From the NCBI GenBank assembly GCA_045401155.1, contig CP174360.1:310769-374768 (forward strand): DNA of 64,000 bases, in the 5' to 3' direction. Shown here in pieces: positions 4,381-49,434 of the stretch. The stretch comes from Candidatus Minusculum obligatum (GTDB taxonomy: Bacteria; Patescibacteriota; Minisyncoccia; Phycocordibacterales; Phycocordibacteraceae). The notes beneath the pieces are model-generated. The model was not told the DNA's origin. It did not search any database and saw only the letters and a program-made list of their open reading frames with translations. The position numbers and the translations under genes were made by a program. Each line of letters begins with the position of its first letter. Positions within the stretch are counted from its first letter, which is position 1.

Positions 4381-7245
4381 ATGAATGCGTTTGAAGAGGC
4401 ATATGGGCGGTTAAATGAAGCTCAGAAAGAAGCGGTAGATACGATAGATGGACCCGTGATGGTTATCGCAGGTCCCGGGACAGGAAAGACCCAGATTCTA
4501 ACGCTTCGCATCGCAAATATTCTAAAGCAAACAGACACGCCAGCTTCTGCAATTTTGGCGCTTACCTATACAGAGGCGGGAGTGTCCGCTATGCGTGAGC
4601 GGCTTGCTTCTTTTATCGGCGGGGAAGCATATGCCGTTCGTATTCACACGTACCACTCATTTGCAGAGAGTTTGATTAGTGAGTATGGATCATACCTTCC
4701 ACGGCTTCGAGATGGGGTGTTGGTAGATGATGTAGATCAACGAGAAGTGCTAGAGCGAGCTTTTGATAGCGTGTCCGTACCGCTACTTACTACTCGTGCA
4801 AATCCATATCGTGCACTTTCTGAAGTGTCTCGATTTATAGATGAGGCAAAGCGAGAGCTTTACACGCCAGAGAAGTTGCGGGAAGAATATAAAGAAGATG
4901 AGGTGCGCATTAAGTCTCAAGGAGATTTTGTACATGAGAAGGGTGCACATAAAGGAAAGATAAAAGGTGAGTATGTGAAAGCGCTACAAAAGATTGAGAA
5001 AAATCTTCAGGCCACTGATGTGTTTGAGGCGTATGAAAAGATTTTACAAAAGGAGCAAAAGTATGATTTTCAAGATTTGTTGCTCGATGTGGTTTCTGCG
5101 CTTAAAGAGCATGAGGAGTTTAAGTTAATGCTTCAAGAGAGTTTCCATTATTTCCTTGCAGATGAGCATCAGGATGCCAATGCTACGCAGAATGAAATCT
5201 TGCTCTTACTTTCAGATTTCCATGAGAATCCAAATGTGTTTGTAGTGGGGGATGAGAAGCAGGCTATCTATCGGTTCCAGGGGGCAGACCTCGATACGTT
5301 TTTAACACTCAAGGAGCGGTATCCAGAATCAAAAGTTATTTTGCTTGATACTAATTACCGCTCTTCTCAAGAGGTGCTGGATGCAGCTCATACACTTATT
5401 GGGAAGGCTCCGATTCCAGATCCTTCTTTGCGGAAAGAGCTTACAGCGCACCATGGAAATAATGTAAAAGTTTCTTTGCTTGCTGCAGAAGATTATGAAA
5501 AAGAAATAAATGCAGTCATTTCATATATACAGGACAAGGTGGATTCAGGAGTTGCACTCGAGGATATAGCTGTGCTTGTTCGAAATAATAAGGATGCATT
5601 TCCTATTGCTAATGCGTGCTTTAGAGCGGGTATTCCATATGCGCTTCGAGCAAAAGAAAATGCGCTAGAGCACGCATTTTCTAAACTGTATATTCATCTT
5701 CTAAAGGGCATATGGGATTTTGATCCTGTATCACTTAGTCGAGCATTGTTTATTCCAGGAATCGTAGAGGATGCAACAGAGCGCCTTAGGGTGATTGAGG
5801 TACTGCGTAATAAAGAAGATCATGAGACTGTAGGGGTATTTAAAGAGTTGCATGAAGAAGTACATGCGCTTCCTGCAGTTAGGGCGATTCCACACATTCT
5901 TTCTAAATGTAATGTTATTTCAGGAGTCGCGTCTCGCTTTGATGCTGCAGAGCTCTATGTAGTGCTTGAGGCGCTGCTATCTGACATGGAGAAGTTCTCT
6001 GCGCTTCATCCTGGGGCGGATATCGGAGAGTATTTAGATCGACTTACACGCATTCAAAAGCATGAGCTATCAGTTGTTTCTTCAAAGAAGAAAACCACGG
6101 GTGTACAGATTCTAACTGCACATAGTGCAAAGGGTCTTGAGTTTCCATATGTTGTCATCCCATTTGCGACAGATCGCAGGTATGGAAGCAAGCGAGCAAG
6201 TGAATTATCCATTCCAGGATCATTTGAGGCAGAAGAGCATGATGAGCGGCGCCTTTTGTATGTGGCGCTTACGCGAGCAGAAAAAGAGGCGTGTATTACA
6301 TATGCAAAGAAAAATAGTATGGGGCGCAGTGAGACACCGTCTCGATTTATTTACGACATGGAGGAGCTGCTAGAAGATATGAATGTAAAAGAGATTAATC
6401 TGCCACTTCTTGCGGAAGAAAAAGAAATATCTCTTATTGATCCAGAGTTTATAAAAGAAAGACTACTTACACTTGGACTATCTGCTACAGCGTATGGAAA
6501 TTACAAAGCATCTCCATGGAAGTATTTCTTTAGGAATTTAATAAGATTGCCGGAAGGGAAGACAATCCCACTTATTTACGGGTCAGCAATTCATAGGGCA
6601 CTTGAGGAGGCAGGGAAACAAGCATTTAAAGGAGAAGAAATTTCTATTCCTGCAGTACTTTCTGTATTTGAAAATGAAATGCAAAAAGCTCCACTTACAG
6701 AGAAAGAAAAAGAAGAGCACATTCCTTCTGGAAAAGAGCTGCTTGAGGAGTATTTGGGGCAGGCAAGTTTTGCAAAAGAAGGTGCAGTTGAGTTTAGCGT
6801 GTCCGTGCCATTTGAAGTGCCAGGAGTAGGAGAAGTTTTGTTAAAGGGAAATCTAGATCGTATTGATGTAGTAGATGGTGGTGTCGTGGTGCTTGATTAT
6901 AAGACTGGCGCGCCAAAGAGTGAGAATCAGATACGAGGATTAACTGCAGAGGCGGATCCTTCATATTACGTGCAGCTTATGTTCTATGCACTTCTTCTAA
7001 AGCACGATCCACAAAAGCGCTATCACATGAAAGAAGGTGTACTTGAGTTTGTAGAGAAGAATCAGACAGGGAAGTATGTGTCTCGACGATTTGTGATTGA
7101 TGAGAAGGAGCTAGAGGAGTTTGAGGAAGAGTTAAAGAAAGATATTGCTGATATAGCAAACGGCGCACTAATAAGTGCGCCGCCAGCTGATGAGTATCTC
7201 GAATTAATTGAGATGCTTATGAAGAAGAAAGAATCTGATCAATAA
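4381..7245 (+). CDS. UvrD/PcrA-like helicase fused to C-terminal RecB-family PD-(D/E)xK nuclease (AddA-like)
   Basis: Walker A VIAGPGTGKTQ, DExx LADEHQD, helicase motifs VGDEKQAIYRFQGA and LTRAEKE. C-terminus carries GNLDRIDVVDGGVVVLDYKTG and YYVQLMFY (nuclease motifs). Start at MNAFEE preferred over ORF-track 4345. Confidence 0.8.
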   Translation: MNAFEEAYGRLNEAQKEAVDTIDGPVMVIAGPGTGKTQILTLRIANILKQTDTPASAILALTYTEAGVSAMRERLASFIGGEAYAVRIHTYHSFAESLISEYGSYLPRLRDGVLVDDVDQREVLERAFDSVSVPLLTTRANPYRALSEVSRFIDEAKRELYTPEKLREEYKEDEVRIKSQGDFVHEKGAHKGKIKGEYVKALQKIEKNLQATDVFEAYEKILQKEQKYDFQDLLLDVVSALKEHEEFKLMLQESFHYFLADEHQDANATQNEILLLLSDFHENPNVFVVGDEKQAIYRFQGADLDTFLTLKERYPESKVILLDTNYRSSQEVLDAAHTLIGKAPIPDPSLRKELTAHHGNNVKVSLLAAEDYEKEINAVISYIQDKVDSGVALEDIAVLVRNNKDAFPIANACFRAGIPYALRAKENALEHAFSKLYIHLLKGIWDFDPVSLSRALFIPGIVEDATERLRVIEVLRNKEDHETVGVFKELHEEVHALPAVRAIPHILSKCNVISGVASRFDAAELYVVLEALLSDMEKFSALHPGADIGEYLDRLTRIQKHELSVVSSKKKTTGVQILTAHSAKGLEFPYVVIPFATDRRYGSKRASELSIPGSFEAEEHDERRLLYVALTRAEKEACITYAKKNSMGRSETPSRFIYDMEELLEDMNVKEINLPLLAEEKEISLIDPEFIKERLLTLGLSATAYGNYKASPWKYFFRNLIRLPEGKTIPLIYGSAIHRALEEAGKQAFKGEEISIPAVLSVFENEMQKAPLTEKEKEEHIPSGKELLEEYLGQASFAKEGAVEFSVSVPFEVPGVGEVLLKGNLDRIDVVDGGVVVLDYKTGAPKSENQIRGLTAEADPSYYVQLMFYALLLKHDPQKRYHMKEGVLEFVEKNQTGKYVSRRFVIDEKELEEFEEELKKDIADIANGALISAPPADEYLELIEMLMKKKESDQ

Positions 7246-7938: not shown

Positions 7939-8748
7939 ATGGAAGTTTTAGTTGCCATTATTCTCGGAATCGTGCAGGGATTGACTGAATTCCTACCTAT
8001 TTCATCTACCGGACACCTTGTTTTAGTACAGGAGTTTTTGGGTGTGGCAGATGTATACGGACTTTCATTTGATGCAATTTTGCACTTAGCTACCGCACTT
8101 GCGGTAGGAATCTATTTCTTTAAGGATTTTTTACGTATCGCGTATGCGTTTTTGTATCGCATTACAGGGCGTCCAGTAAACAAAGAAGATGAGAAGCTTT
8201 TGTGGCTTCTTGTGGTTGGTACGATTCCAGCTGCAGTTCTAGGATTCTTCCTAGAAGGGTATATGGAAACTGTGTTTAGAAGCGCAATCCTTGTTGCGTG
8301 GACACTTATTGTTGGTGCGCTCGTATTTCTTGCTGCGGAGTGGTTCTCTAAGCGATATATGGAGAAGGAAGAAGTACCAACCTTTGCGAAAGCAATTGGT
8401 ATTGGATTCTTTCAAGCGCTTGCGCTTATTCCGGGAATGAGTCGCTCAGGGATGACTATCTCAGGAGGGCTTTTCTTGGGTCTTTCTCGAGAAGCTGCAG
8501 CACGATTTGGATTTATGCTTTCACTTCCAATTATTTTAGGATCAGGAGGGAAGAAGTTTCTAGAACTACTTAATGCAGGAGCATTTGATACAGGAGCAAC
8601 AGCTATTATTTGGGGAAGTATTGCCGCATTTGTAAGTGGTCTTATTGCAATTCATTTCCTTCTAAGGTTTGTAAAGAATCATTCACTTACTGTATTCGCA
8701 GTGTATAGAATTATTTTGGCGGTAATTGTGTTGTGGTGGTTTGTTTGA
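7939..8748 (+). CDS. uppP: Undecaprenyl-diphosphatase UppP/BacA
   Basis: MEVLVAIILGIVQGLTEFLPISSTGHL and the SRSG motif. Start at 7939 rather than ORF-track 7807. Confidence 0.9.
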   Translation: MEVLVAIILGIVQGLTEFLPISSTGHLVLVQEFLGVADVYGLSFDAILHLATALAVGIYFFKDFLRIAYAFLYRITGRPVNKEDEKLLWLLVVGTIPAAVLGFFLEGYMETVFRSAILVAWTLIVGALVFLAAEWFSKRYMEKEEVPTFAKAIGIGFFQALALIPGMSRSGMTISGGLFLGLSREAAARFGFMLSLPIILGSGGKKFLELLNAGAFDTGATAIIWGSIAAFVSGLIAIHFLLRFVKNHSLTVFAVYRIILAVIVLWWFV

Positions 8749-8824
8749 CAAATACACAATAATTGTGGTATTTTATTGCGGGTTTTGACCCTTCACATTA
8801 ACATTGAAATGGGAGATTTCAATC

Positions 8825-9394
8825 ATGAGCAATGCTCAACAGGCAACTGTTCTGGACCAGATGCAGGCTGAACTGGCGGGGATCGATCTCGGTAACTACG
8901 AGATCAATCCGATGGAAGACGAGGGGTTCGATTCGAACCGCATGATTCACGTCGGTCCGGCGCCCGATCAGGTCAAGCGCCTGATCGTGTTGCGGTATCT
9001 TCTCGAGAAGCAACTCGACCAGGAAAAACGCTTTGGCCACAATGCGGTCGAGGTGTTGCGCAATCTCGGTGGCGACGTTGTCGCGACCGTTCGTGCGGTC
9101 AGGGCTATGAAAGATTTCACGGAAATCGATGAAGCTCTCCAGAACATTGCCGACGCGAACGAGCGGATCAATACGCTCTCGCGTAAGCTCGAGCTTCTGA
9201 ACATCCTGACCCAGGAAGAACTTTCTTGCCATTTCGGCGACAAGATTTCCCGGGTCAAGTTTCAGGGCGGTGAAGCCGCCCTCATGGTGATCCTGTCCGA
9301 CTGGACGGTCGCGACGATGAAGGATGCTGAACGCATTTTCGGTCGTCCTGCCGACGGCTTCATGGAAATGCTTCACGAGGCCATGGGCGGCTAG
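8825..9394 (+). CDS. Hypothetical protein encoded in GC-rich island 1 (foreign codon usage)
   Basis: RBS GGGAG 7 nt upstream of ATG 8825. About 57% GC with high GC3, against about 42% in flanks. Own GC-rich terminator. No family recognised. Confidence 0.6.
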   Translation: MSNAQQATVLDQMQAELAGIDLGNYEINPMEDEGFDSNRMIHVGPAPDQVKRLIVLRYLLEKQLDQEKRFGHNAVEVLRNLGGDVVATVRAVRAMKDFTEIDEALQNIADANERINTLSRKLELLNILTQEELSCHFGDKISRVKFQGGEAALMVILSDWTVATMKDAERIFGRPADGFMEMLHEAMGG

Positions 9395-9417
9395 GCGACC
9401 CACGTCGTCTCCAGAAC

Positions 9418-9458
9418 AAAAAGGTCCCACCAAGTCAGTCTTGGTGGGACCTTTTCTT
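9418..9458. terminator. Rho-independent terminator
   Basis: ggtcccaccaag-tcagt-cttggtgggacc followed by tttt. Confidence 0.8.
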
Positions 9459-10033
9459 TATAGTCCCAGAGTTTGCGTCACCGCGCCTCCATCAGCTTCT
9501 TCCCATGCAGATGTATCAATTTTAATATCCTTAATTTCATTAAGATCTTTCCACTTAATGATCTTATTCTCTTTAGCGTATTCAAAAATATCTTTTGTTA
9601 CTTTTACGTCTTGAAGACAGTACTCACGTACCTTGTCTACTTTTCCTTGCTGCCACCACTCAATAGCTTTAAGCCCATCAGCGCTCTTTCCTTCGCCAAG
9701 CGTTGCTTCAGCTAGGTTGTTGAGACGAATACGTCGTCCAAGAGACCGATGCACATCCTTAAGGAGGTCAATACTTTTAATGCTTGTTAAGTCTCCCGGA
9801 TAGTATTTATTGAGTAGGGGGATATCAAAGGTGTCTGAGTTAAACCCAACGATTGCGTCTGTTGCCTCAAGAAGCGGCCAGAAGTTCTGAAGTTCTTCCA
9901 CAGTGTAGCTGGTGTACTCATCAGTATTGCTGTCATATACGCCCAAGATCGCAATATCAAGCTCTGTTACGTTCTTCTCATTAATATACGGAAGCGTGTC
10001 CGTAGTTTCTATATCAAATACTATGTATCTCAT
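9458..10033 (-). CDS. DEDD-family 3'-5' exonuclease (DnaQ/oligoribonuclease-like)
   Basis: Exo I FDIETT, Exo II GFNSDTFDIPLL, Exo III YCLQD. 4-bp overlap with hisS. Confidence 0.75.
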   Translation of the reverse strand: MRYIVFDIETTDTLPYINEKNVTELDIAILGVYDSNTDEYTSYTVEELQNFWPLLEATDAIVGFNSDTFDIPLLNKYYPGDLTSIKSIDLLKDVHRSLGRRIRLNNLAEATLGEGKSADGLKAIEWWQQGKVDKVREYCLQDVKVTKDIFEYAKENKIIKWKDLNEIKDIKIDTSAWEEADGGAVTQTLGL

Positions 10034-13589: not shown

Positions 13590-13596
13590 ACGAAAA

Positions 13597-13621
13597 TCGC
13601 CCATCCCTAGTAGGGATGGGC
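13597..13621. terminator. GC-rich bidirectional terminator hairpin
   Basis: cgcccatccctagtagggatgggcg, at the edge of GC island 2. Confidence 0.7.
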
Positions 13622-13638
13622 GATGGTTTCCTTGGAGT

Positions 13639-13944
13639 TCAGTTGCCCCAGGTCATTTGGCCGAAAAGATTGCCGGTAGCCGTCATGCGACAGATGATGC
13701 CGCCCGCACGAGCACGATTTTCGGAGTCGTACGCAGTGAAGCCGCTAACGACTTCGGTCGTGATGCCATCGACGTGACACGCTTCGATGTCACCTTCGCG
13801 TGCTTCGTGAAGGCGCGTTTCCGCAGCATCGATGTAGTCGGCCGCAACAAGGTGATCTGCAAAGCTTTGCTGGGTGTTTTGTTGCTCTTGGCTGCCACAC
13901 CCACACAGGGTCGTGACCACGAGAATTGTAAGGATCATTTTCAT
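13639..13944 (-). CDS. Small secreted/lipoprotein-like hypothetical protein in GC-rich island 2
   Basis: RBS GGAG upstream of MKMILTILVVTTLCGCGSQ (signal peptide with Cys). About 58% GC against about 42% host. Start at 13944, not ORF-track 14106. Confidence 0.55.
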   Translation of the reverse strand: MKMILTILVVTTLCGCGSQEQQNTQQSFADHLVAADYIDAAETRLHEAREGDIEACHVDGITTEVVSGFTAYDSENRARAGGIICRMTATGNLFGQMTWGN

Positions 13945-14029
13945 CAGAACTTCTCCACTGGATTGATGACTTATGTTAATTATACTATAACATTGACATG
14001 TGTCAAGATATGGTGTATAGTGCGCATAT

Positions 14030-26902: not shown

Positions 26903-27162
26903 GGCTCCGTATATATGATGAAATCCGAATGTATTTCAGACGGAGTCTGAAATGAACGGCGAGAGCGCGTGGTACCTCGCACGTAAACCTCCGCAAGGTG
27001 ATTTCCTACTAGCTCCCGCACCCGCACGCCTCGCTGTACTCGCCGTGCACAAATAGAATCCTTCTTTGCACTTTTATCCTTTCCCGCGCCCCCATTTTTT
27101 GGGAAATAGGGAAAAGAAGTTTCTATTTGCCTTCTGCTTCGCGCAGAAGGGGTGCTTGTGCC
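26903..27162 (+). repeat. Core GGCTCCG + Y repeat, copy A (internally diverged)
   Basis: Shares 5' (TATATATGATGAAATCCGAATGTATTTCAGACGGAGTCTGAAATGAACGG) and 3' (TTTCCCGCGCCCCCATTTTTTGGGAAA...CCTTCTGC..GCAGAAGG) segments with copies at 28360, 30015 and 41075(rc). Confidence 0.85.
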
Positions 27163-27217
27163 TCGTATATAAAAGTGTTGCCCCACCTGGGAGGGTGGGG
27201 CAAGACGCTTCTCGTTA

Positions 27218-27427
27218 TCACGCACTTTCAGTCTCCCGAACGTGTTCGTTCATGGGACAGTTCTCCCGATGAACCAAGTTGTTGTTTCGGTTCAGCGGGG
27301 GAACGTCGTGCGGATAGCCAAGATGTGTGGGTCCTGTGTCGATGCCGGTAGCGCTGCAGCACAAGCAGCGGTAGCTTGACGGCTCATCGACGATTGCAGA
27401 CCGTACAGGGACAGGGACGGTTTTCAT
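27218..27427 (-). CDS. Hypothetical 69-aa protein, GC-rich island 3, gene B
   Basis: RBS GGAGAG, then spacing, then ATG. GC-rich. Followed by hairpin ttgccccacc-tggga-ggtggggcaa at 27178-27203. Confidence 0.45.
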   Translation of the reverse strand: MKTVPVPVRSAIVDEPSSYRCLCCSATGIDTGPTHLGYPHDVPPLNRNNNLVHRENCPMNEHVRETESA

Positions 27428-27448
27428 ATTTTCTCTCCGATCCAGAGG

Positions 27449-27745
27449 TTATCGCTTGTCAGTTCTGATGCCGTGGCTTGCTCGACAGGTGAGAAAGCAT
27501 AGGTTTCGAACTGCATCTTCCGGTAGTCTGCTCCAGCCCGTGAAGACGATATCTTCTTCGTGAGCCTGAAACATTGCGAGAAATCCCTCGCCATCATCAC
27601 CGCGCCGTCTCCGCGCACGGTGTTTCCTGACGATAATTTCTCCGTATCTTCCATTGACCATCTTTCGAAGCCAACGTTGTCTGCGCCTATGGCTTTGGGG
27701 TTTCATCCCTGCGCCATGAGCGAGAGCAAGGAATACATCCGGCAT
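27449..27745 (-). CDS. Hypothetical basic 98-aa protein, GC-rich island 3, gene A
   Basis: Strong RBS GGAGGG 5 nt before ATG. Arg-rich segment HRRRQRWLRK...RKHRARRRRG. About 55% GC. Confidence 0.5.
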   Translation of the reverse strand: MPDVFLALAHGAGMKPQSHRRRQRWLRKMVNGRYGEIIVRKHRARRRRGDDGEGFLAMFQAHEEDIVFTGWSRLPEDAVRNLCFLTCRASHGIRTDKR

Positions 27746-27800
27746 ATTGCCCTCCAGTTGGTGGTAAAAACTCTGTTTAGAAAGTAGTACAAATATTACC

Positions 27801-41410: not shown

Positions 41411-42904
41411 ATGAGATTCTTTTTATACATACGCAAATCAACCGATGAGGATGATAGGCAGATATTGTCGCTTGAAGCGCAAGAATTTGAATTGAAGCAG
41501 TTGGCTTCGCAAGAGCAAATAGAGATAGTAGAGGTGTTTCGAGAGTCACAGACTGCAAAAGAACCAGGGCGGAAAGTTTTTAATGAAATGCTCTTGCGAA
41601 TAGAGAATGGGGAAGTTGATGGAATTCTATCGTGGCATCCGGATAGATTGGCACGCAATAGTGTAGATGGCGGACGTATTATTTATTTAGTGGATGCGGG
41701 GAAGATACAATTCCTCAAATTCCCAACATTCTGGTTTGAGCCAACGCCTCAAGGCAAATTCATGCTGAACATTGCTTTTGGTCAGTCGAAATATTTTGTT
41801 GATAATCTTTCAGAGAATACTCGTCGTGGACTTCGTCAAAAATTGCGCCGTGGCGAATGGCCGGGACCAGCACCCATTGGCTATCTAAACGATAAGTTAG
41901 GTCACACTATTGTGCTGGATCCCGAGCGTGCGCCACTTCTGCAGAAGTTGTTTGAGAAATATGCAGAGGGGAATTATTCTCTGAAAGATTTACAAAATAT
42001 TGCAAAGTCTATTGGCTTGTTTAGTAGGGGAGGAAAGGTGTTATCTGTTTCGCTTATTCAAAACATCCTCTCCAATCCTTTTTATTATGGAGTTATGAGA
42101 TATGGAGGAGAATTGTATGAAGCAAAACACGAGCCTTTGATTTCTAAGAAACTGTTTGATTCCATTCAGAAGATAATGGCTAGCAAGTCGAGACCTCGCA
42201 AACATGGAGAGGTAGAGTATCCACTGCGTGGATTATTTGAGTGTGGCGAGTGCTCGTGCGCCATTACTTCTGAAATGCAAAAAGGACATCATTATTATCG
42301 CTGCACGAAAAAGCGTGGCGCTTGCTCGCAAAAATATCTTCGAGAAGAGCTTTTGGTTGAGCAGGTTGATGATGTCCTTTCAAACGTTTCTATACCTGAT
42401 TCGTGGGCAGAGGAGATGCTCGTGAGATTGGATGAGGAGAAGGAGTCTGAGGAGAGAGAAACTTCTCTGTATGCTCAAAAATTAAGAGACGATATTGCAT
42501 CTTTTGATCTCAAGCTTGATGCACTTCTAGATACTTATTTAGAGAAAAGTATTTCAAAAGAGGAGTATCAGAGCAAAAAGCAAAAACTGTTAGATCAAAA
42601 GATAGATTTGCAGGAGAAATTAGACTCAATTTCGCATACAGGAAGTTTCTGGCTCGAACCGATGCGAAACTTAATTTTAGATAGTAAACAAGCCAAATAT
42701 ATTGCTTCACAAAAATCTCTCTTCGAGAAGAGAGATTTTTGCAAAAAGGTTGGCTCGAACCTTGTTTTAGTGGACAAACGAGTGTCCTTTTTCTTCAAAA
42801 CCCCCTGGGAAATCCTTGCGAATTTCCCCCTTCAGAATTTTGGAAATCTCCCAAAATCTGAACTCTGTACTATCCGGCTCCGCGGACAGGATTCGAACCT
42901 GTGA
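41411..42904 (+). CDS. Large serine recombinase (resolvase-domain integrase)
   Basis: N-terminal YIRKSTDEDDRQILSLEAQ with catalytic Ser. Recombinase domain, zinc ribbon CGECSCA...YYRC, coiled coil. ORF runs through repeat X and stops inside the tRNA 3' end. Confidence 0.85.
   Translation: MRFFLYIRKSTDEDDRQILSLEAQEFELKQLASQEQIEIVEVFRESQTAKEPGRKVFNEMLLRIENGEVDGILSWHPDRLARNSVDGGRIIYLVDAGKIQFLKFPTFWFEPTPQGKFMLNIAFGQSKYFVDNLSENTRRGLRQKLRRGEWPGPAPIGYLNDKLGHTIVLDPERAPLLQKLFEKYAEGNYSLKDLQNIAKSIGLFSRGGKVLSVSLIQNILSNPFYYGVMRYGGELYEAKHEPLISKKLFDSIQKIMASKSRPRKHGEVEYPLRGLFECGECSCAITSEMQKGHHYYRCTKKRGACSQKYLREELLVEQVDDVLSNVSIPDSWAEEMLVRLDEEKESEERETSLYAQKLRDDIASFDLKLDALLDTYLEKSISKEEYQSKKQKLLDQKIDLQEKLDSISHTGSFWLEPMRNLILDSKQAKYIASQKSLFEKRDFCKKVGSNLVLVDKRVSFFFKTPWEILANFPLQNFGNLPKSELCTIRLRGQDSNL
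42772..42890 (+). repeat. X repeat + core GGCTCCG, copy R, abutting the tRNA 3' end
   Basis: Identical to X in copy C. Inverted relative to X in copy D, so the recombinase gene is bracketed by roughly 100-bp inverted repeats. Confidence 0.85.
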
Positions 42905-43495
42905 CCTGCCGGTTACGCTTGATCCCACTATTTCTAGGGGTGCGGACTATATCATCACCCATCTTGCGATTAGGGTGGAAGGCGCTTCCCAAAGCTTTCG
43001 CTCCAGTACTCCCGTAAGGGATAGTCTCTGAACCTTCCTCGTGAGAGGCTTGGCTGCTGATTACCTGCAACATTACTTGCTAAGGCTTCCAGCAATTCAC
43101 CTTCTTTTCAACCTAAGTTTCCTTAGGAGGCTGCGTGGTGCCTGCGTGCAGTTCTGCGTGGCAATTTGCGCAAACAAGAATACATTTATCAAGTTCTTTT
43201 TGGATTTTCTCCCAAGAACGAGTTAGTCCTCTTGCTGATAATCCAAAATCTTTTTGCTTTGGATCTTTGTGATGAAAGGCAAGCGCTTGCTTACATTTTT
43301 TATATCCACAAATTTTGCATTTACCACCTCCGTATTCAAGAGCTTTGTTGCGAAGTTCCTTTCGTCGCTTTGCAACTGCCTTGCGGAGATATTCTGCACG
43401 GTCAGCGTATGTTCTTTTATCTGGCATACACATATGTAGTATACCAGAGGAACATGCGTTCACAGCCGGATGCTCTACCGCTGAGCTACCGCGGA
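42886..43495 (-). tRNA. tRNA (Asn-GUU if spliced by group I rules; His-GUG if co-linear) split by a ~538-nt anticodon-loop intron
   Basis: Exon 1 (43495..43462) is TCCGCGGTAGCTCAGCGGTAGAGCATCCGGCTGT. Exon 2 (42923..42886) is TAACCGGCAGGTCACAGGTTCGAATCCTGTCCGCGGAG. Acceptor stem is 7/7, D-arm and T-arm (GGTTCGAATCC) are canonical, discriminator is G. Confidence 0.75.
43113..43433 (-). CDS. Intron-encoded HNH homing endonuclease
   Basis: CKICGYKKCKQALAFHHKDPKQKD...CANCHAELH (HNH with two zinc knuckles). Lies wholly inside the tRNA intron. ORF-track N-terminal extension to 43571 rejected. Confidence 0.75.
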   Translation of the reverse strand: MCMPDKRTYADRAEYLRKAVAKRRKELRNKALEYGGGKCKICGYKKCKQALAFHHKDPKQKDFGLSARGLTRSWEKIQKELDKCILVCANCHAELHAGTTQPPKET

Positions 43496-45762: not shown

Positions 45763-46045
45763 AACAAAAAAGCCACCTATGCATAGGTGGCAAAAGGGCC
45801 AGGTGAGGTGACCAGAGAACTCGCGCTACCAAGGCGAGGGTTCAAAGGAAGCACGTGCTTCTGGCCACCTCGGGGCGCACAGGAGAAGTATATCATAGAA
45901 GAAAGGGCGGAAAACGTTGTGGAGGGCACACAGCGTTTTCCGCCCAGAGGCGAGCGCATCAGGCTCAGTCACGAAACCTTTGCGCTCGCGCGGTGCCCGT
46001 CTGCGGGGGGAGATTGCAAACGGGCGGCCTGGATCCATACTACGC
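45763..46045 (-). ncRNA. GC-rich structured RNA candidate ending in an intrinsic terminator (identity unresolved)
   Basis: About 58% GC over about 285 nt with no credible ORF. Minus strand ends with GCCACCTATGCATAGGTGGC + T6 at 45763-45791. Long internal stems such as ggcggaaaacg/cgttttccgcc. Confidence 0.45.
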
Positions 46046-46065
46046 CTTTAGGTTAGAATTGCAAT

Positions 46066-48738: not shown

Positions 48739-49434
48739 TTACCAGGTGCGGCTCACGCTCGCTCCGTAGGTCACGTGATGTGCTTCCGGTCCGGAGGGAT
48801 TGAATCCACCGACAGAAAGCGTGAGTGACCAGTTCTCGAAAGACCGTGTCGTCGAAGCTTCCCATCGTGGAGACGTGTAGTCCGAATCGGTACTGTGCGT
48901 GACGCCCAGAAGCATATTGGTGCTCCAGCTCTCACTGACCGTATGATTCCAGCTCGCGGCGGTGCGCCACAAGTTGGTTTCAATCAGGCCGGTGAGTTGA
49001 TCAGCGCCGAGCATCAGGTTGATGCTGTTGTTGGCGTCGATCTCGATCGTGTCACTCACCGTGGCGCGGAATCGGATGATGTCCGTGCCGGTAAAGTCGA
49101 GGTCGCCGACATTGGGAGTCGGAATATCGAACAACGAGATCGAGGCACTGCAGGAAAGGTTCCCGCACGCGCCTGCCCAGCCGACAGTGTAGTCAACCTC
49201 ACGGCCCTGGACATTTCCATCGAGCGCTTCAGAGCGCCAGTAGTCAAGGAAGAATCCATTCCCGTAGGAGGTAGTGATGCCGCCTTGAAGAACGGGTTCG
49301 TCGTATTGGGTGAAGCCGAACTCCGAGAAGGAGTAATCCGACTTCACACCGACGTAGATCGTGAGTTCTTGAGCGCTCGCTGTCGAGCCAAGAAGCGCAA
49401 CAGCAGCAAGCATGGTAAGGATCGTTTTCATCAC
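48739..49434 (-). CDS. Proteobacterial-type outer-membrane beta-barrel protein (TIGR02001/MipA-like) in GC-rich island 4
   Basis: Signal peptide. LTIYVGVKSDYSFSEF...GFFLDYWRSE. Alternating amphipathic strands, C-terminal W. About 58% GC. Confidence 0.6.
   Translation of the reverse strand: MMKTILTMLAAVALLGSTASAQELTIYVGVKSDYSFSEFGFTQYDEPVLQGGITTSYGNGFFLDYWRSEALDGNVQGREVDYTVGWAGACGNLSCSASISLFDIPTPNVGDLDFTGTDIIRFRATVSDTIEIDANNSINLMLGADQLTGLIETNLWRTAASWNHTVSESWSTNMLLGVTHSTDSDYTSPRWEASTTRSFENWSLTLSVGGFNPSGPEAHHVTYGASVSRTW

Follow-up and report, generated by a model that had tools for sequence, protein, structure and literature searches.

The layout of IS200 is compact: about 700 bp with one small ORF, hairpins at the ends and the RBS held in a hairpin. 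Structured 5' mRNA elements, namely translational operators, RNA thermometers and RBS-sequestering leaders (such as the IS200 tnpA leader), place the SD and the start codon in local hairpins. For foreign DNA, there is the amelioration model, which is said to go back to Lawrence and Ochman. Single-gene islets and ORFans, finally, comprise a lone accessory gene that has expression signals of its own and lacks an assigned function, and they are recognized by an atypical GC content and codon usage and by their presence or absence at a conserved junction; the transfer of single genes into Patescibacteria is on record (PMC12455944). The locus described here, which lies in a window of 64,000 nt (the whole stretch of DNA that was analyzed), resembles such islets in all these respects. 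It differs from them in that no donor could be identified, that no mobility gene, tRNA or repeats were found at its borders, and that the gene is old (it is present in two species, with a dS of about 1) yet unameliorated, its 5' third being nearly invariant at the nucleotide level. We favor, with a probability of about 0.6, the reading that it is a domesticated, horizontally acquired orphan gene. The gain of a single gene is here an ordinary kind of event, apart from a near-identical stretch of 237 bases at the start of the gene.

The earlier note had described a GC-rich island with foreign codon usage, located between uppP and an exonuclease/hisS operon and carrying its own RBS and terminator, and all of this held up. 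The island is bounded by the stop codons of uppP (8746–8748) and of the exonuclease gene (9458–9460); both neighbors were identified by Pfam matches (Table 1), and the exonuclease gene, which is convergent to the island gene, overlaps the end of hisS. The island ORF runs from an ATG at 8825 over 189 codons to a TAG at 9392–9394, its translation starts with MSNAQQATVLDQMQAELAGIDLGNYEINPMEDEGFD, in agreement with the earlier quotation of it, and the GGGAG serving as RBS is found 9 nt ahead of the ATG.

Table 1. Features at the uppP–exonuclease junction (positions are those of the window)
Feature	Position	Strand	Details
Left flank, uppP (undecaprenyl-diphosphatase, BacA family), host gene	7939..8748	+	PF02673, E = 2e-83
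Inserted block (GC-rich island)	8749..9457	+	709 nt, from uppP stop to exonuclease stop
Putative sigma-70-like promoter	8745..8774	+	TTGACA, 18 nt, TGgTATTTT (TG extended -10)
Frozen segment (leader and codons 1–57)	8758..8994	+	237 nt, 97.5% identity between window and L001
SD-loop hairpin	8803..8823	+	AUUGAAAU-GGGAG-AUUUCAAU; SD (8811–8815) in loop; ends 1 nt before start codon
Protein-coding gene, orphan	8825..9394	+	189 aa; annotated as hypothetical protein ACJKSS_01785
Spurious antisense ORF	8819..9433	-	204 aa; dN/dS 0.9, stop codon in L001
Intrinsic terminator	9419..9459	+	perfect 16-bp hairpin (9419–9455), then T-run
Right flank, RNase_H-superfamily 3'-5' exonuclease, host gene	9458..10033	-	PF13482, E = 9.5e-11

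As in acquired islets, composition and codon usage set the island apart. The GC content of the ORF is 56%, compared to 41.9% for the 64-kb window, and in 300-nt windows it peaks at 0.56 inside the island, with values of 0.39–0.44 in the flanks. GC1, GC2 and GC3 are 0.65, 0.33 and 0.70, respectively; the GC3 value lies about 4 sd above the median of 0.33 (sd 0.09, n = 75 ORFs), to be compared with 0.34 for uppP. Indeed, the RSCU values of the island are anti-correlated with those of host genes (r = -0.39), and they correlate with those of a second GC-rich island, which encodes a TorF-like porin (r = +0.63). A codon bias due to high expression was considered as the cause of the high GC3 and rejected: in the region of a putative ribosomal-protein cluster and RRF, GC3 is only 0.25–0.34. 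Note that GATC occurs 7 times in the island against 2.2 expected, an excess that is not exceptional since other 570-nt windows reach 8.

The expression signals are well delineated. The promoter candidate recovered by a consensus scan has 10 matches out of 12 to the consensus, its -35 hexamer overlaps the uppP stop codon, and both hexamers and the TG are unchanged in the alignment with the related locus L001; this segment probably acts as the promoter of the island gene. The terminator adjoins the stop codon of the exonuclease gene, which is convergent. Its stem still pairs in L001: a double change has turned one A-U pair into G-C, and two C residues have become U, giving rise to G-U pairs that are possible in the RNA of the + strand only.

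The L001 locus comes from an independent assembly of another sample and species (Logan SRR33375167; ~81% nucleotide identity), and it carries an ortholog of the island gene at exactly the same junctions. The two island proteins are 82% identical, and the exonucleases 96% identical at the amino acid level. Other relatives have an intact site without the gene: in L004, the stop codons of uppP and the exonuclease gene overlap (TTAA); in L003, the two genes are separated only by a palindromic terminator of ~70 nt; and in L011, by a gap of ~30 nt. L002 bears another, different insert at this junction. For uppP, the exonuclease gene and hisS alike, identity to the window is highest for L001, followed by L002/L003 and then by L004. 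Since the sites of L003, L004 and L011 are empty, the block is an insertion that took place in the ancestor of the two species. Thus, the common ancestor of the window genome and of L001 had acquired the block of ~709 nt, between the abutting convergent uppP and exonuclease genes, after its split from the lineages that retain the empty site.

The island is therefore an insertion, and its composition and codon usage are strongly non-host, as the earlier note had described them. That note had also held that homologs at the same locus in related genomes, together with uniform coverage and clean junctions, would make the gene native; one relative, L001, does have an ortholog there, yet the gene, although old and fixed, is not native, because the deeper relatives lack it. 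A recent transfer of the whole island was also considered and rejected, its centre and 3' UTR being as diverged as the background. As for signatures of mobility, we found no tRNA adjoining the island, no TIR or TSD at its borders, and no match to an integrase or recombinase-like family in Pfam, PHROG and NCBIfam scans. Since neither a donor nor a homolog was found outside the two genomes, it is solely the composition and the phyletic pattern that argue for a foreign origin.

Comparison of the two copies showed that the island carries one real protein-coding gene on the + strand, with a codon usage opposite to that of the host. The + frame displays a dN/dS of 0.24–0.26 and is free of stops in both the window and the L001 copy; by contrast, the other frames have an omega of at least 0.9 or are interrupted by stops. 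The copies differ by two indels, both of 3 nt, and dN is 0.135 in the 3' part of the gene. The gene has thus been kept under purifying selection, with its frame preserved in the ortholog, while silent sites in its neighborhood approached saturation.

Divergence within the island is markedly uneven. In 5.6 kb of synteny with L001 (mean identity 81%), the only 150-nt windows with at least 92% identity fall within the frozen segment, which consists of the leader and the first codons of the gene (Table 1). There, dS is 0.055, compared to 0.8–1.7 in the neighbors, and the probability of finding six or fewer mismatches in 237 nt at 19% divergence is 9e-15. The frozen tract begins at the island edge, because the adjoining flanks show the background pS of ~0.5 (~0.5 in uppP up to the junction, and 0.53–0.56 in the exonuclease gene next to the junction).

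There is, in our estimation, an even chance that the frozen segment is a functional element at the nucleotide level, the most plausible form of which would be a structured 5' mRNA region setting translation initiation. The segment folds better than shuffled sequences (z = -3.1 for the + strand and -4.4 for the - strand), and in both genomes the strongest folding within the ORF is that of its first 180 nt; such a signal is seen outside the island as well, since the host uppP gene also folds below its shuffles (mean z of -1.4). The predicted hairpin with the SD in its loop is present in both the MFE and centroid structures with pair probabilities of 0.62–0.78, is kept in the L001 fold, and may have a regulatory role: the fold would set initiation by exposing the SD in the loop while the start codon is held in the stem next to it. 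With respect to the predicted fold, four of the six substitutions that distinguish the two sequences are unpaired, one converts a G-U into an A-U pair and one breaks a pair, so that five of the six are compatible with it. The island leader and early coding sequence thus resemble structured 5' mRNA elements in their local hairpins, their conservation at all codon positions and their folding. They differ from them in that the SD is in a loop instead of being paired, in that the span of 237 nt, which reaches 170 nt into the coding sequence, is long for such an element, and in that the comparison is between two near-identical copies only. They also lack an Rfam match: a search of positions 8600–9600 against Rfam 15 in sensitive mode gave only sub-threshold noise at E <= 10 (mostly on the terminator) and nothing at the gathering thresholds. 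When metagenome contigs were searched for exact copies of the conserved leader, no match was returned.

The strongest rival to this part of the account, and to this part only, is that the frozen segment arose by recent homologous recombination or gene conversion, or by a gene-specific sweep, between the lineages, which would make its age about a tenth of that of the remaining gene. We consider this the less probable origin of the segment. A shorter coalescence time predicts that pN and pS drop by similar factors, and this is what was observed: pN is 0.022 in the frozen segment against 0.123 in the rest of the ORF (5.6-fold), and pS 0.053 against 0.40 (7.5-fold). Similarly, three of the four changes seen in the alignment of codons 1–56 are nonsynonymous (three nonsynonymous and two synonymous for codons 1–57 by the Nei-Gojobori method), as is typical of young differences, and most of the horizontal transfer detected in Patescibacteria is between Patescibacteria (PMC12455944). 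However, no second tract of this kind occurs in the 5.6 kb of synteny. The left end of the tract is at most 10 nt from the edge of the island, next to which uppP shows background pS, whereas recombination between sequences of ~81% identity requires homologous flanks and should leave a tract that runs on into the flank. Furthermore, nowhere in the ORF is folding more stable than in the frozen segment, and this holds for both genomes. The invariant stretch would be either a new regulatory element or the trace of a localized inter-species sweep, and in both cases it would show, if general, how tiny genomes handle acquired genes.

The GC content of the island calls for separate consideration. The composition of the TorF-like porin island persists in deeper relatives too, with a GC4 of 0.48–0.72, while its saturated flanks are at 0.19–0.34. 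As the porin island keeps its composition across saturated divergence, GC-richness cannot date an acquisition here. For the island gene under study, the amelioration model applies in part: silent sites in the diverged centre turn over at host rates, and this centre fits a neutral decay from a GC3 of ~0.9–1.0, i.e. GC3 would be falling from 0.9 or more towards host values. Unlike in that model, the whole-gene GC4 of 0.74–0.75 lies above the neutral ceiling of 0.62, the differences between classes amount to half of the neutral prediction, and the porin island stays GC-rich throughout. A broader proposal would be that the GC-rich single-gene islands of this clade, the orphan and the porin island among them, are held at high-GC silent sites over long times within a 42% GC genome by an unrecognized process, and that the 237-nt segment would be a novel element, of RNA or DNA, that acts in cis and is linked to this process. 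We regard this as improbable; the GC might be held by selection for structured or long-lived mRNAs, by biased gene conversion at hotspots of exchange or by recurrent exchange with a GC-rich partner organism. If foreign composition in these genomes were generally so slow to decay, GC-based dating and detection of recent horizontal transfer would mislead, and some force would have to act on silent sites.

The same data bear on the possibility that the gene is native and ancestral, that independent losses removed it from the relatives, and that its GC-richness was made and maintained within the lineage by selection or a biased process. The porin island demonstrates that GC-richness is maintained in this clade; the excess of GC4 over the neutral maximum and the failure to find a donor homolog among about 15 billion proteins count on the same side. 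Nonetheless, a native origin demands at least three precise losses (L003, L004 and L011) plus a replacement in L002, against one gain, and one of these losses would have had to restore overlapping stop codons. The codon usage opposed to that of the host and the diverged centre, which behaves like high-GC DNA decaying neutrally, also tell against it, and we judge it quite unlikely.

A structured non-coding RNA gene, or some other nucleic-acid element on which the ORF is fortuitous, is still harder to defend. The z-score for folding of the sense strand is indeed negative in all scan windows (mean of -2.5 for the window copy and -1.6 for L001), the freezing of the 5' segment extends to all codon positions, and high-GC DNA often contains long spurious ORFs, such as the antisense ORF found here. 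However, in the diverged two-thirds of the gene substitutions fall mainly at third codon positions (omega 0.24), the frame has remained open in both genomes despite ~18% divergence with indels in multiples of three, the RBS is good and properly spaced, and no credible Rfam family was found, all of which makes this reading very unlikely.

We strongly disfavor a minimal, IS200-like mobile element targeting the terminator site between uppP and the exonuclease gene. The length of 709 nt, the single ORF, the SD-containing hairpin and the strong terminal hairpin do recall the IS200 layout, and the junction is variable, as shown by the insert in L002. Against this, no Y1/HUH transposase (PF01797) is encoded, there being no Pfam match at E <= 10 and no His-hydrophobic-His motif; borders with TIR or TSD are lacking; and the multiple copies and sites typical of IS200/IS605 elements were not observed, since the island is present once in the 64-kb window and twice across the databases searched, at one syntenic site (no paralog or repeat of it was detected in the window or in ~75 related loci). 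Finally, the sharp composition boundaries and the nature of the genome (a MAG) could have suggested an assembly chimera, which the earlier note had wished to exclude, or else contamination or an acquisition that is very recent and specific to the strain. This reading is effectively refuted because the independent assembly SRR33375167 of a diverged species carries the same gene at the same junctions, with 82% protein identity, purifying selection and a non-coding 3' region as diverged as the background.

According to the preferred reading, a domesticated gene of horizontal origin, the gene would be transcribed alone, from the junction-spanning extended -10 promoter of the sigma-70 type to its own intrinsic terminator, as the sequence signals suggest. 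The donor would have been a GC-rich organism or element (ancestral GC3 of about 0.9), possibly proteobacterial, as for other islands of the clade, which encode proteins of proteobacterial type (Gcw_chp/TorF and GcrA). The gene would then add to the lineage-restricted accessory genes of reduced, symbiont-type genomes; the value of the case lies mainly in its being a clean, well-bounded example of how Patescibacteria gain a single gene, for which both the exact empty sites and a pair of diverged orthologs are available.

The earlier note had found no recognizable family for the protein, and family searches confirmed this. Among ~15 billion proteins the family has two members only, the window gene and its L001 ortholog (P0002): no further homolog was recovered by a word-indexed search of 5.8 billion clusters (up to E <= 10) or by an exhaustive HMMER search of 1.84 billion representatives, an extra match (P0003) being a spurious translated tandem repeat. 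Scanning genome, viral and metagenome contigs for peptide patterns gave nothing either, and tblastn against phages and plasmids gave no match. Scans of both proteins against Pfam, PHROGs, NCBIfam and PADLOC gave sub-threshold noise only, PADLOC yielding no family at E <= 10 and hence no known anti-phage defence family; the best E-value in a PDB profile search was 0.36, and the AlphaFold2 models were unusable (pLDDT of 39 with the two-sequence alignment and 44 with the single sequence).

The protein (21 kDa, pI 4.8) is soluble and predicted to be mostly alpha-helical, and acidity is a property of both copies (pI of 4.6–4.8); it may be a soluble acidic binding protein. Given its small size, acidity, solubility, fast evolution, single acquisition and lack of relatives, one may guess, doubtful as this is, that it binds or inhibits a partner stoichiometrically, in the manner of an immunity or anti-defence protein. 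In size, acidity, solubility, fast evolution, singleton acquisition and lack of homologs it is indeed like toxin-immunity and DNA-mimic anti-restriction proteins; unlike in orphan immunity and anti-defence systems, neither a toxin gene nor a defence gene lies beside it and PADLOC gave no match, so that the likeness is one of analogy only. An XRE-type HTH spotted by eye at residues ~118–165 was rejected, as no HTH model matched. Two weak matches shared by both proteins may serve as a lead, not as evidence of membership: DUF6806 (PF20621) at residues 8–62, with scores of 16.8 (window) and 19.1 bits (P0002) against a gathering threshold of 27 bits and over profile positions 80–140 of 159 only, and the Ferritin-like domain (PF00210) at residues ~53–123, with scores of 16.0 and 17.8 against a gathering threshold of 24.5 bits. 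The antisense ORF (Table 1), which has no Pfam match either, was dismissed as a gene: it is a by-product of the GC-rich sense frame.

The inserted block between uppP and the exonuclease gene (island 1) is, as far as comparative sequence can tell, a real and old insertion and no artefact. The sole relative of its protein, P0002 (82% identity), lies on an independently assembled contig from a related species (Logan SRR33375167, locus L001), where the gene order matches that of the window (uppP, ORF, exonuclease, hisS, bPH_2 and so on) with ~81% identity over 5.6 kb, and where the ortholog is as GC-rich as the island 1 ORF (GC3 0.71). We gathered related loci using the conserved exonuclease as an anchor (n = 71). 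Three of these have a convergent uppP–exonuclease pair with next to nothing in between: the spacer is only a ~70-nt palindromic terminator in L003 (UBA2103 MAG; exonuclease 89% identical), the two stop codons overlap in TTAA in L004 (Wolfebacteria MAG; 81%), and a ~30-nt gap is left in L011 (Kaiserbacteria MAG). By uppP, exonuclease and hisS identities alike, the window and L001 are closer to each other than to L002, L003 or L004. One gain of the block in the window–L001 ancestor is far more parsimonious than at least three precise losses. Genes have been gained at this junction more than once: in L002 (UBA3533), it is occupied by another insert, AT-rich and comprising two genes (L002 4573-6070). 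This insert surrounds a palindromic terminator of the L003 type; its genes encode a 258-aa protein resembling, by eye, the endonuclease/exonuclease/phosphatase family and a 234-aa protein. Terminal repeats, target duplications, a tRNA and a recombinase were sought at island 1 as traces of mobility and none was found; nor did island 1 prove to belong to the IS200-like elements or to an Rfam family.

Island 1 was shown to be a single-gene insertion of strongly non-host codon usage, fixed in two species. Its ORF has a GC content of 56%, versus 41.9% across the window, and GC1/2/3 of 0.65/0.33/0.70, versus a median window GC3 of 0.33 (sd 0.09, n = 75 ORFs); its RSCU is anti-correlated with that of host genes (r = -0.39). 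The earlier note had described a GC-rich ORF of foreign codon usage with its own RBS and terminator, lying between uppP and the exonuclease/hisS operon, and this description proved accurate (see the table). We infer that the gene would be expressed monocistronically, from the junction-spanning promoter to its own terminator.

Features of island 1, its neighbours and other GC-rich or unusual segments (window positions)
Feature	Position	Strand	Remarks
uppP/BacA			upstream neighbour; PF02673
Promoter-like site (TTGACA, 18 nt, TGgTATTTT)	8745-8774	+	-35 hexamer overlaps uppP stop codon
Island 1, inserted block	8749-9457		
Frozen segment	8758-8994		promoter-proximal leader, 5' UTR, codons 1-57
8-bp hairpin	8803-8823	+	SD in loop; from folding of frozen segment
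Shine-Dalgarno GGGAG	9 nt 5' of ATG 8825	+	from sequence
Island 1 ORF	8825-9394	+	189 codons
Terminator-like element	9419-9459	+	perfect 16-bp hairpin and T-run; from sequence
RNase_H-superfamily exonuclease, then hisS			downstream neighbours, convergent
GC-rich block (~0.52)	13590-13983		missing at syntenic position in L001
GC-rich patch (~0.5-0.55)	~26950-27750		no convincing ORF
Split tRNA gene	~42868-43495	-	group I intron, Rfam RF00028, 42924-43197, 71.6 bits
GC-rich patch (0.60)	45787-46056		no convincing ORF; def-adjacent gap
Porin island	48739-49434	-	TorF/Gcw_chp-type putative outer-membrane porin; single gene, 231 aa, signal peptide

Comparison with L001 by the Nei-Gojobori method indicates that the ORF is protein-coding on the + strand and under purifying selection: dN was 0.099 and dS 0.38 for the whole ORF (dN/dS 0.26), and 0.135 and 0.57 from codon 58 to the end (dN/dS 0.24), the neighbouring genes giving dN of 0.025-0.195 and dS of 0.79-1.74. 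Of the frames, the + one alone is open in both genomes, and the two indels separating the orthologs are of 3 nt each. A full-length antisense ORF (8819-9433, - strand) was rejected as a gene (omega ~0.9, stop in L001). As read from the alignment, the terminator stem stays paired in L001: a double change replaces one A-U pair by G-C, and two C-to-U changes yield G-U pairs in the + strand RNA only. This is consistent with termination of a + strand transcript.

The beginning of the island behaves differently from the rest. Over the frozen segment, the window and L001 are 97.5% identical (6 of 237 nt differ; P = 9e-15 under background divergence), and nowhere else in the syntenic alignment does a 150-nt window reach 92% identity. 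dS is 0.055 in this segment, versus 0.57 in the remaining ORF and 0.8-1.7 in the neighbours. In a sliding map (40 codons wide), pS is ~0.5 at the ends of uppP and of the exonuclease gene, 0.04-0.11 at the ORF start, 0.61 in the centre (9005-9121) and 0.25-0.34 in the 3' part, so that the low-divergence tract starts at the left edge of the island, inside it. We put at about 0.5 the probability that the segment is under functional constraint at the nucleotide level. In the window and in L001 alike, no other part of the ORF is as structured, and the segment folds more stably than dinucleotide-shuffled sequence (z = -3.1 for the + strand, -4.4 for the - strand), as does, at a mean z of -1.4, the host gene uppP; besides the hairpin carrying the SD, a second predicted stem takes in the start codon. 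The six substitutions (four unpaired, one G-U to A-U, one pair-breaking) are compatible with structural constraint in what is a very low-power test. The main alternative, a recent inter-lineage recombination tract or a sweep, would account for the proportional lowering of pN and pS, but we hold it to be less likely than constraint, as the tract end coincides with the island boundary and the adjoining flank has no reduced divergence. Island 1 also contains seven GATC sites (8881-9289; ~2.2 expected), several of them inside frozen-segment palindromes (GGATCGATCTCG/CGAGATCAATCC, CGATCAGG/CCTGATCG); this excess is not statistically exceptional, other 570-nt windows reaching eight.

Between these two genomes, the composition of island 1 has ameliorated less than expected. 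At the 4-fold sites of the flanking genes, a GC4 of 0.265 and GC/AT class differences of 29.7% give k*2t = 1.44, at which an ancestor of 100% GC4 should now show a GC4 of 0.62 and 40-47% class differences; in island 1, class differences amount to 20%, and GC4 stands at 0.74-0.75 in the window and in L001. By segment, codons 58-100, the diverged centre (44% of third positions differ, GC3 0.63-0.70), fit neutral decay from a GC3 of ~0.9-1.0, so the excess GC sits in the 5' and 3' parts, which evolve slowly. The porin island (GC 0.57, GC3 0.69) resembles island 1 in codon usage (r = +0.63), and its gene holds the same holB|mreB slot in two more distant relatives (L073 4001-4774, L075 6001-6648), with GC4 kept at 0.48-0.72 despite flanks saturated at 4-fold sites (GC4 0.19-0.34). 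The GC-richness of islets in this clade therefore persists and is no sign of recency. The family itself, a putative outer-membrane porin, is odd for a Patescibacteria cell. Island 1 would have come from a GC-rich donor, possibly of proteobacterial affinity; other islets of the clade encode Gcw_chp/TorF and, in L001, GcrA.

That the protein matches no recognised family, as the earlier note had stated, was confirmed for both orthologs at threshold in Pfam, PHROGs, NCBIfam and PADLOC. Weak matches to DUF6806 (16.8 and 19.1 bits, cut-off 27) and Ferritin-like (16 and 17.8 bits, cut-off 24.5) recur in both copies and are leads only; the protein was found to be neither a member of these families nor a known defence protein. 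No homolog beyond the two orthologs appeared among 5.8 billion clusters (word-indexed search, also at E <= 10), in an exhaustive HMMER search of 1.84 billion representatives, or in PDB, phages, plasmids and viral, metagenome and genome contig collections; one extra database match was rejected as a spurious translated tandem repeat. AlphaFold2 models were unusable (pLDDT 39 and 44). The protein (21 kDa, pI 4.6-4.8) lacks a hydrophobic segment; most of it is predicted to form helices. Its small size, acidity, solubility, fast evolution, acquisition as a single gene and lack of homologs might, tentatively, point to a binding or inhibitor protein, of the immunity or anti-defence kind; a role as a small regulator is less likely.

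For Patescibacteria, the transfer of individual genes and of islands is already on record, with amelioration expected to erase old events (PMC12455944). Island 1 is a further example of this kind, an ORFan islet whose boundaries are unusually well defined; less ordinary are the invariance of its 237 nt at the 5' end and the lasting GC-richness that it shares with the porin island. The window and L001 species also differ by gains and losses of small GC-rich islets. A lipoprotein-like - strand ORF (MKMILTILVVTTLCGCGS...) that matches nothing in Pfam overlaps the block at 13590-13983, and L001 carries at 6486-6998 a GC-rich GcrA-family gene (PF07750, E = 5e-48) missing there in the window. Neither GC-rich patch matched Rfam at E <= 0.1; the def-adjacent gap also exists in L073 and L075, with poor alignment and no convincing consensus structure. 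Finally, ARAGORN detected no tRNA across the 64 kb; the 5' half of the intron-split tRNA (TCCGCGGTAGCTCAGCGGTAGAGCATCCGGCTGTG...) begins at 43495, and its 3' half, which has a GGTTCGAATCC T-arm, extends to near 42868, with GUG (His) as the probable anticodon.
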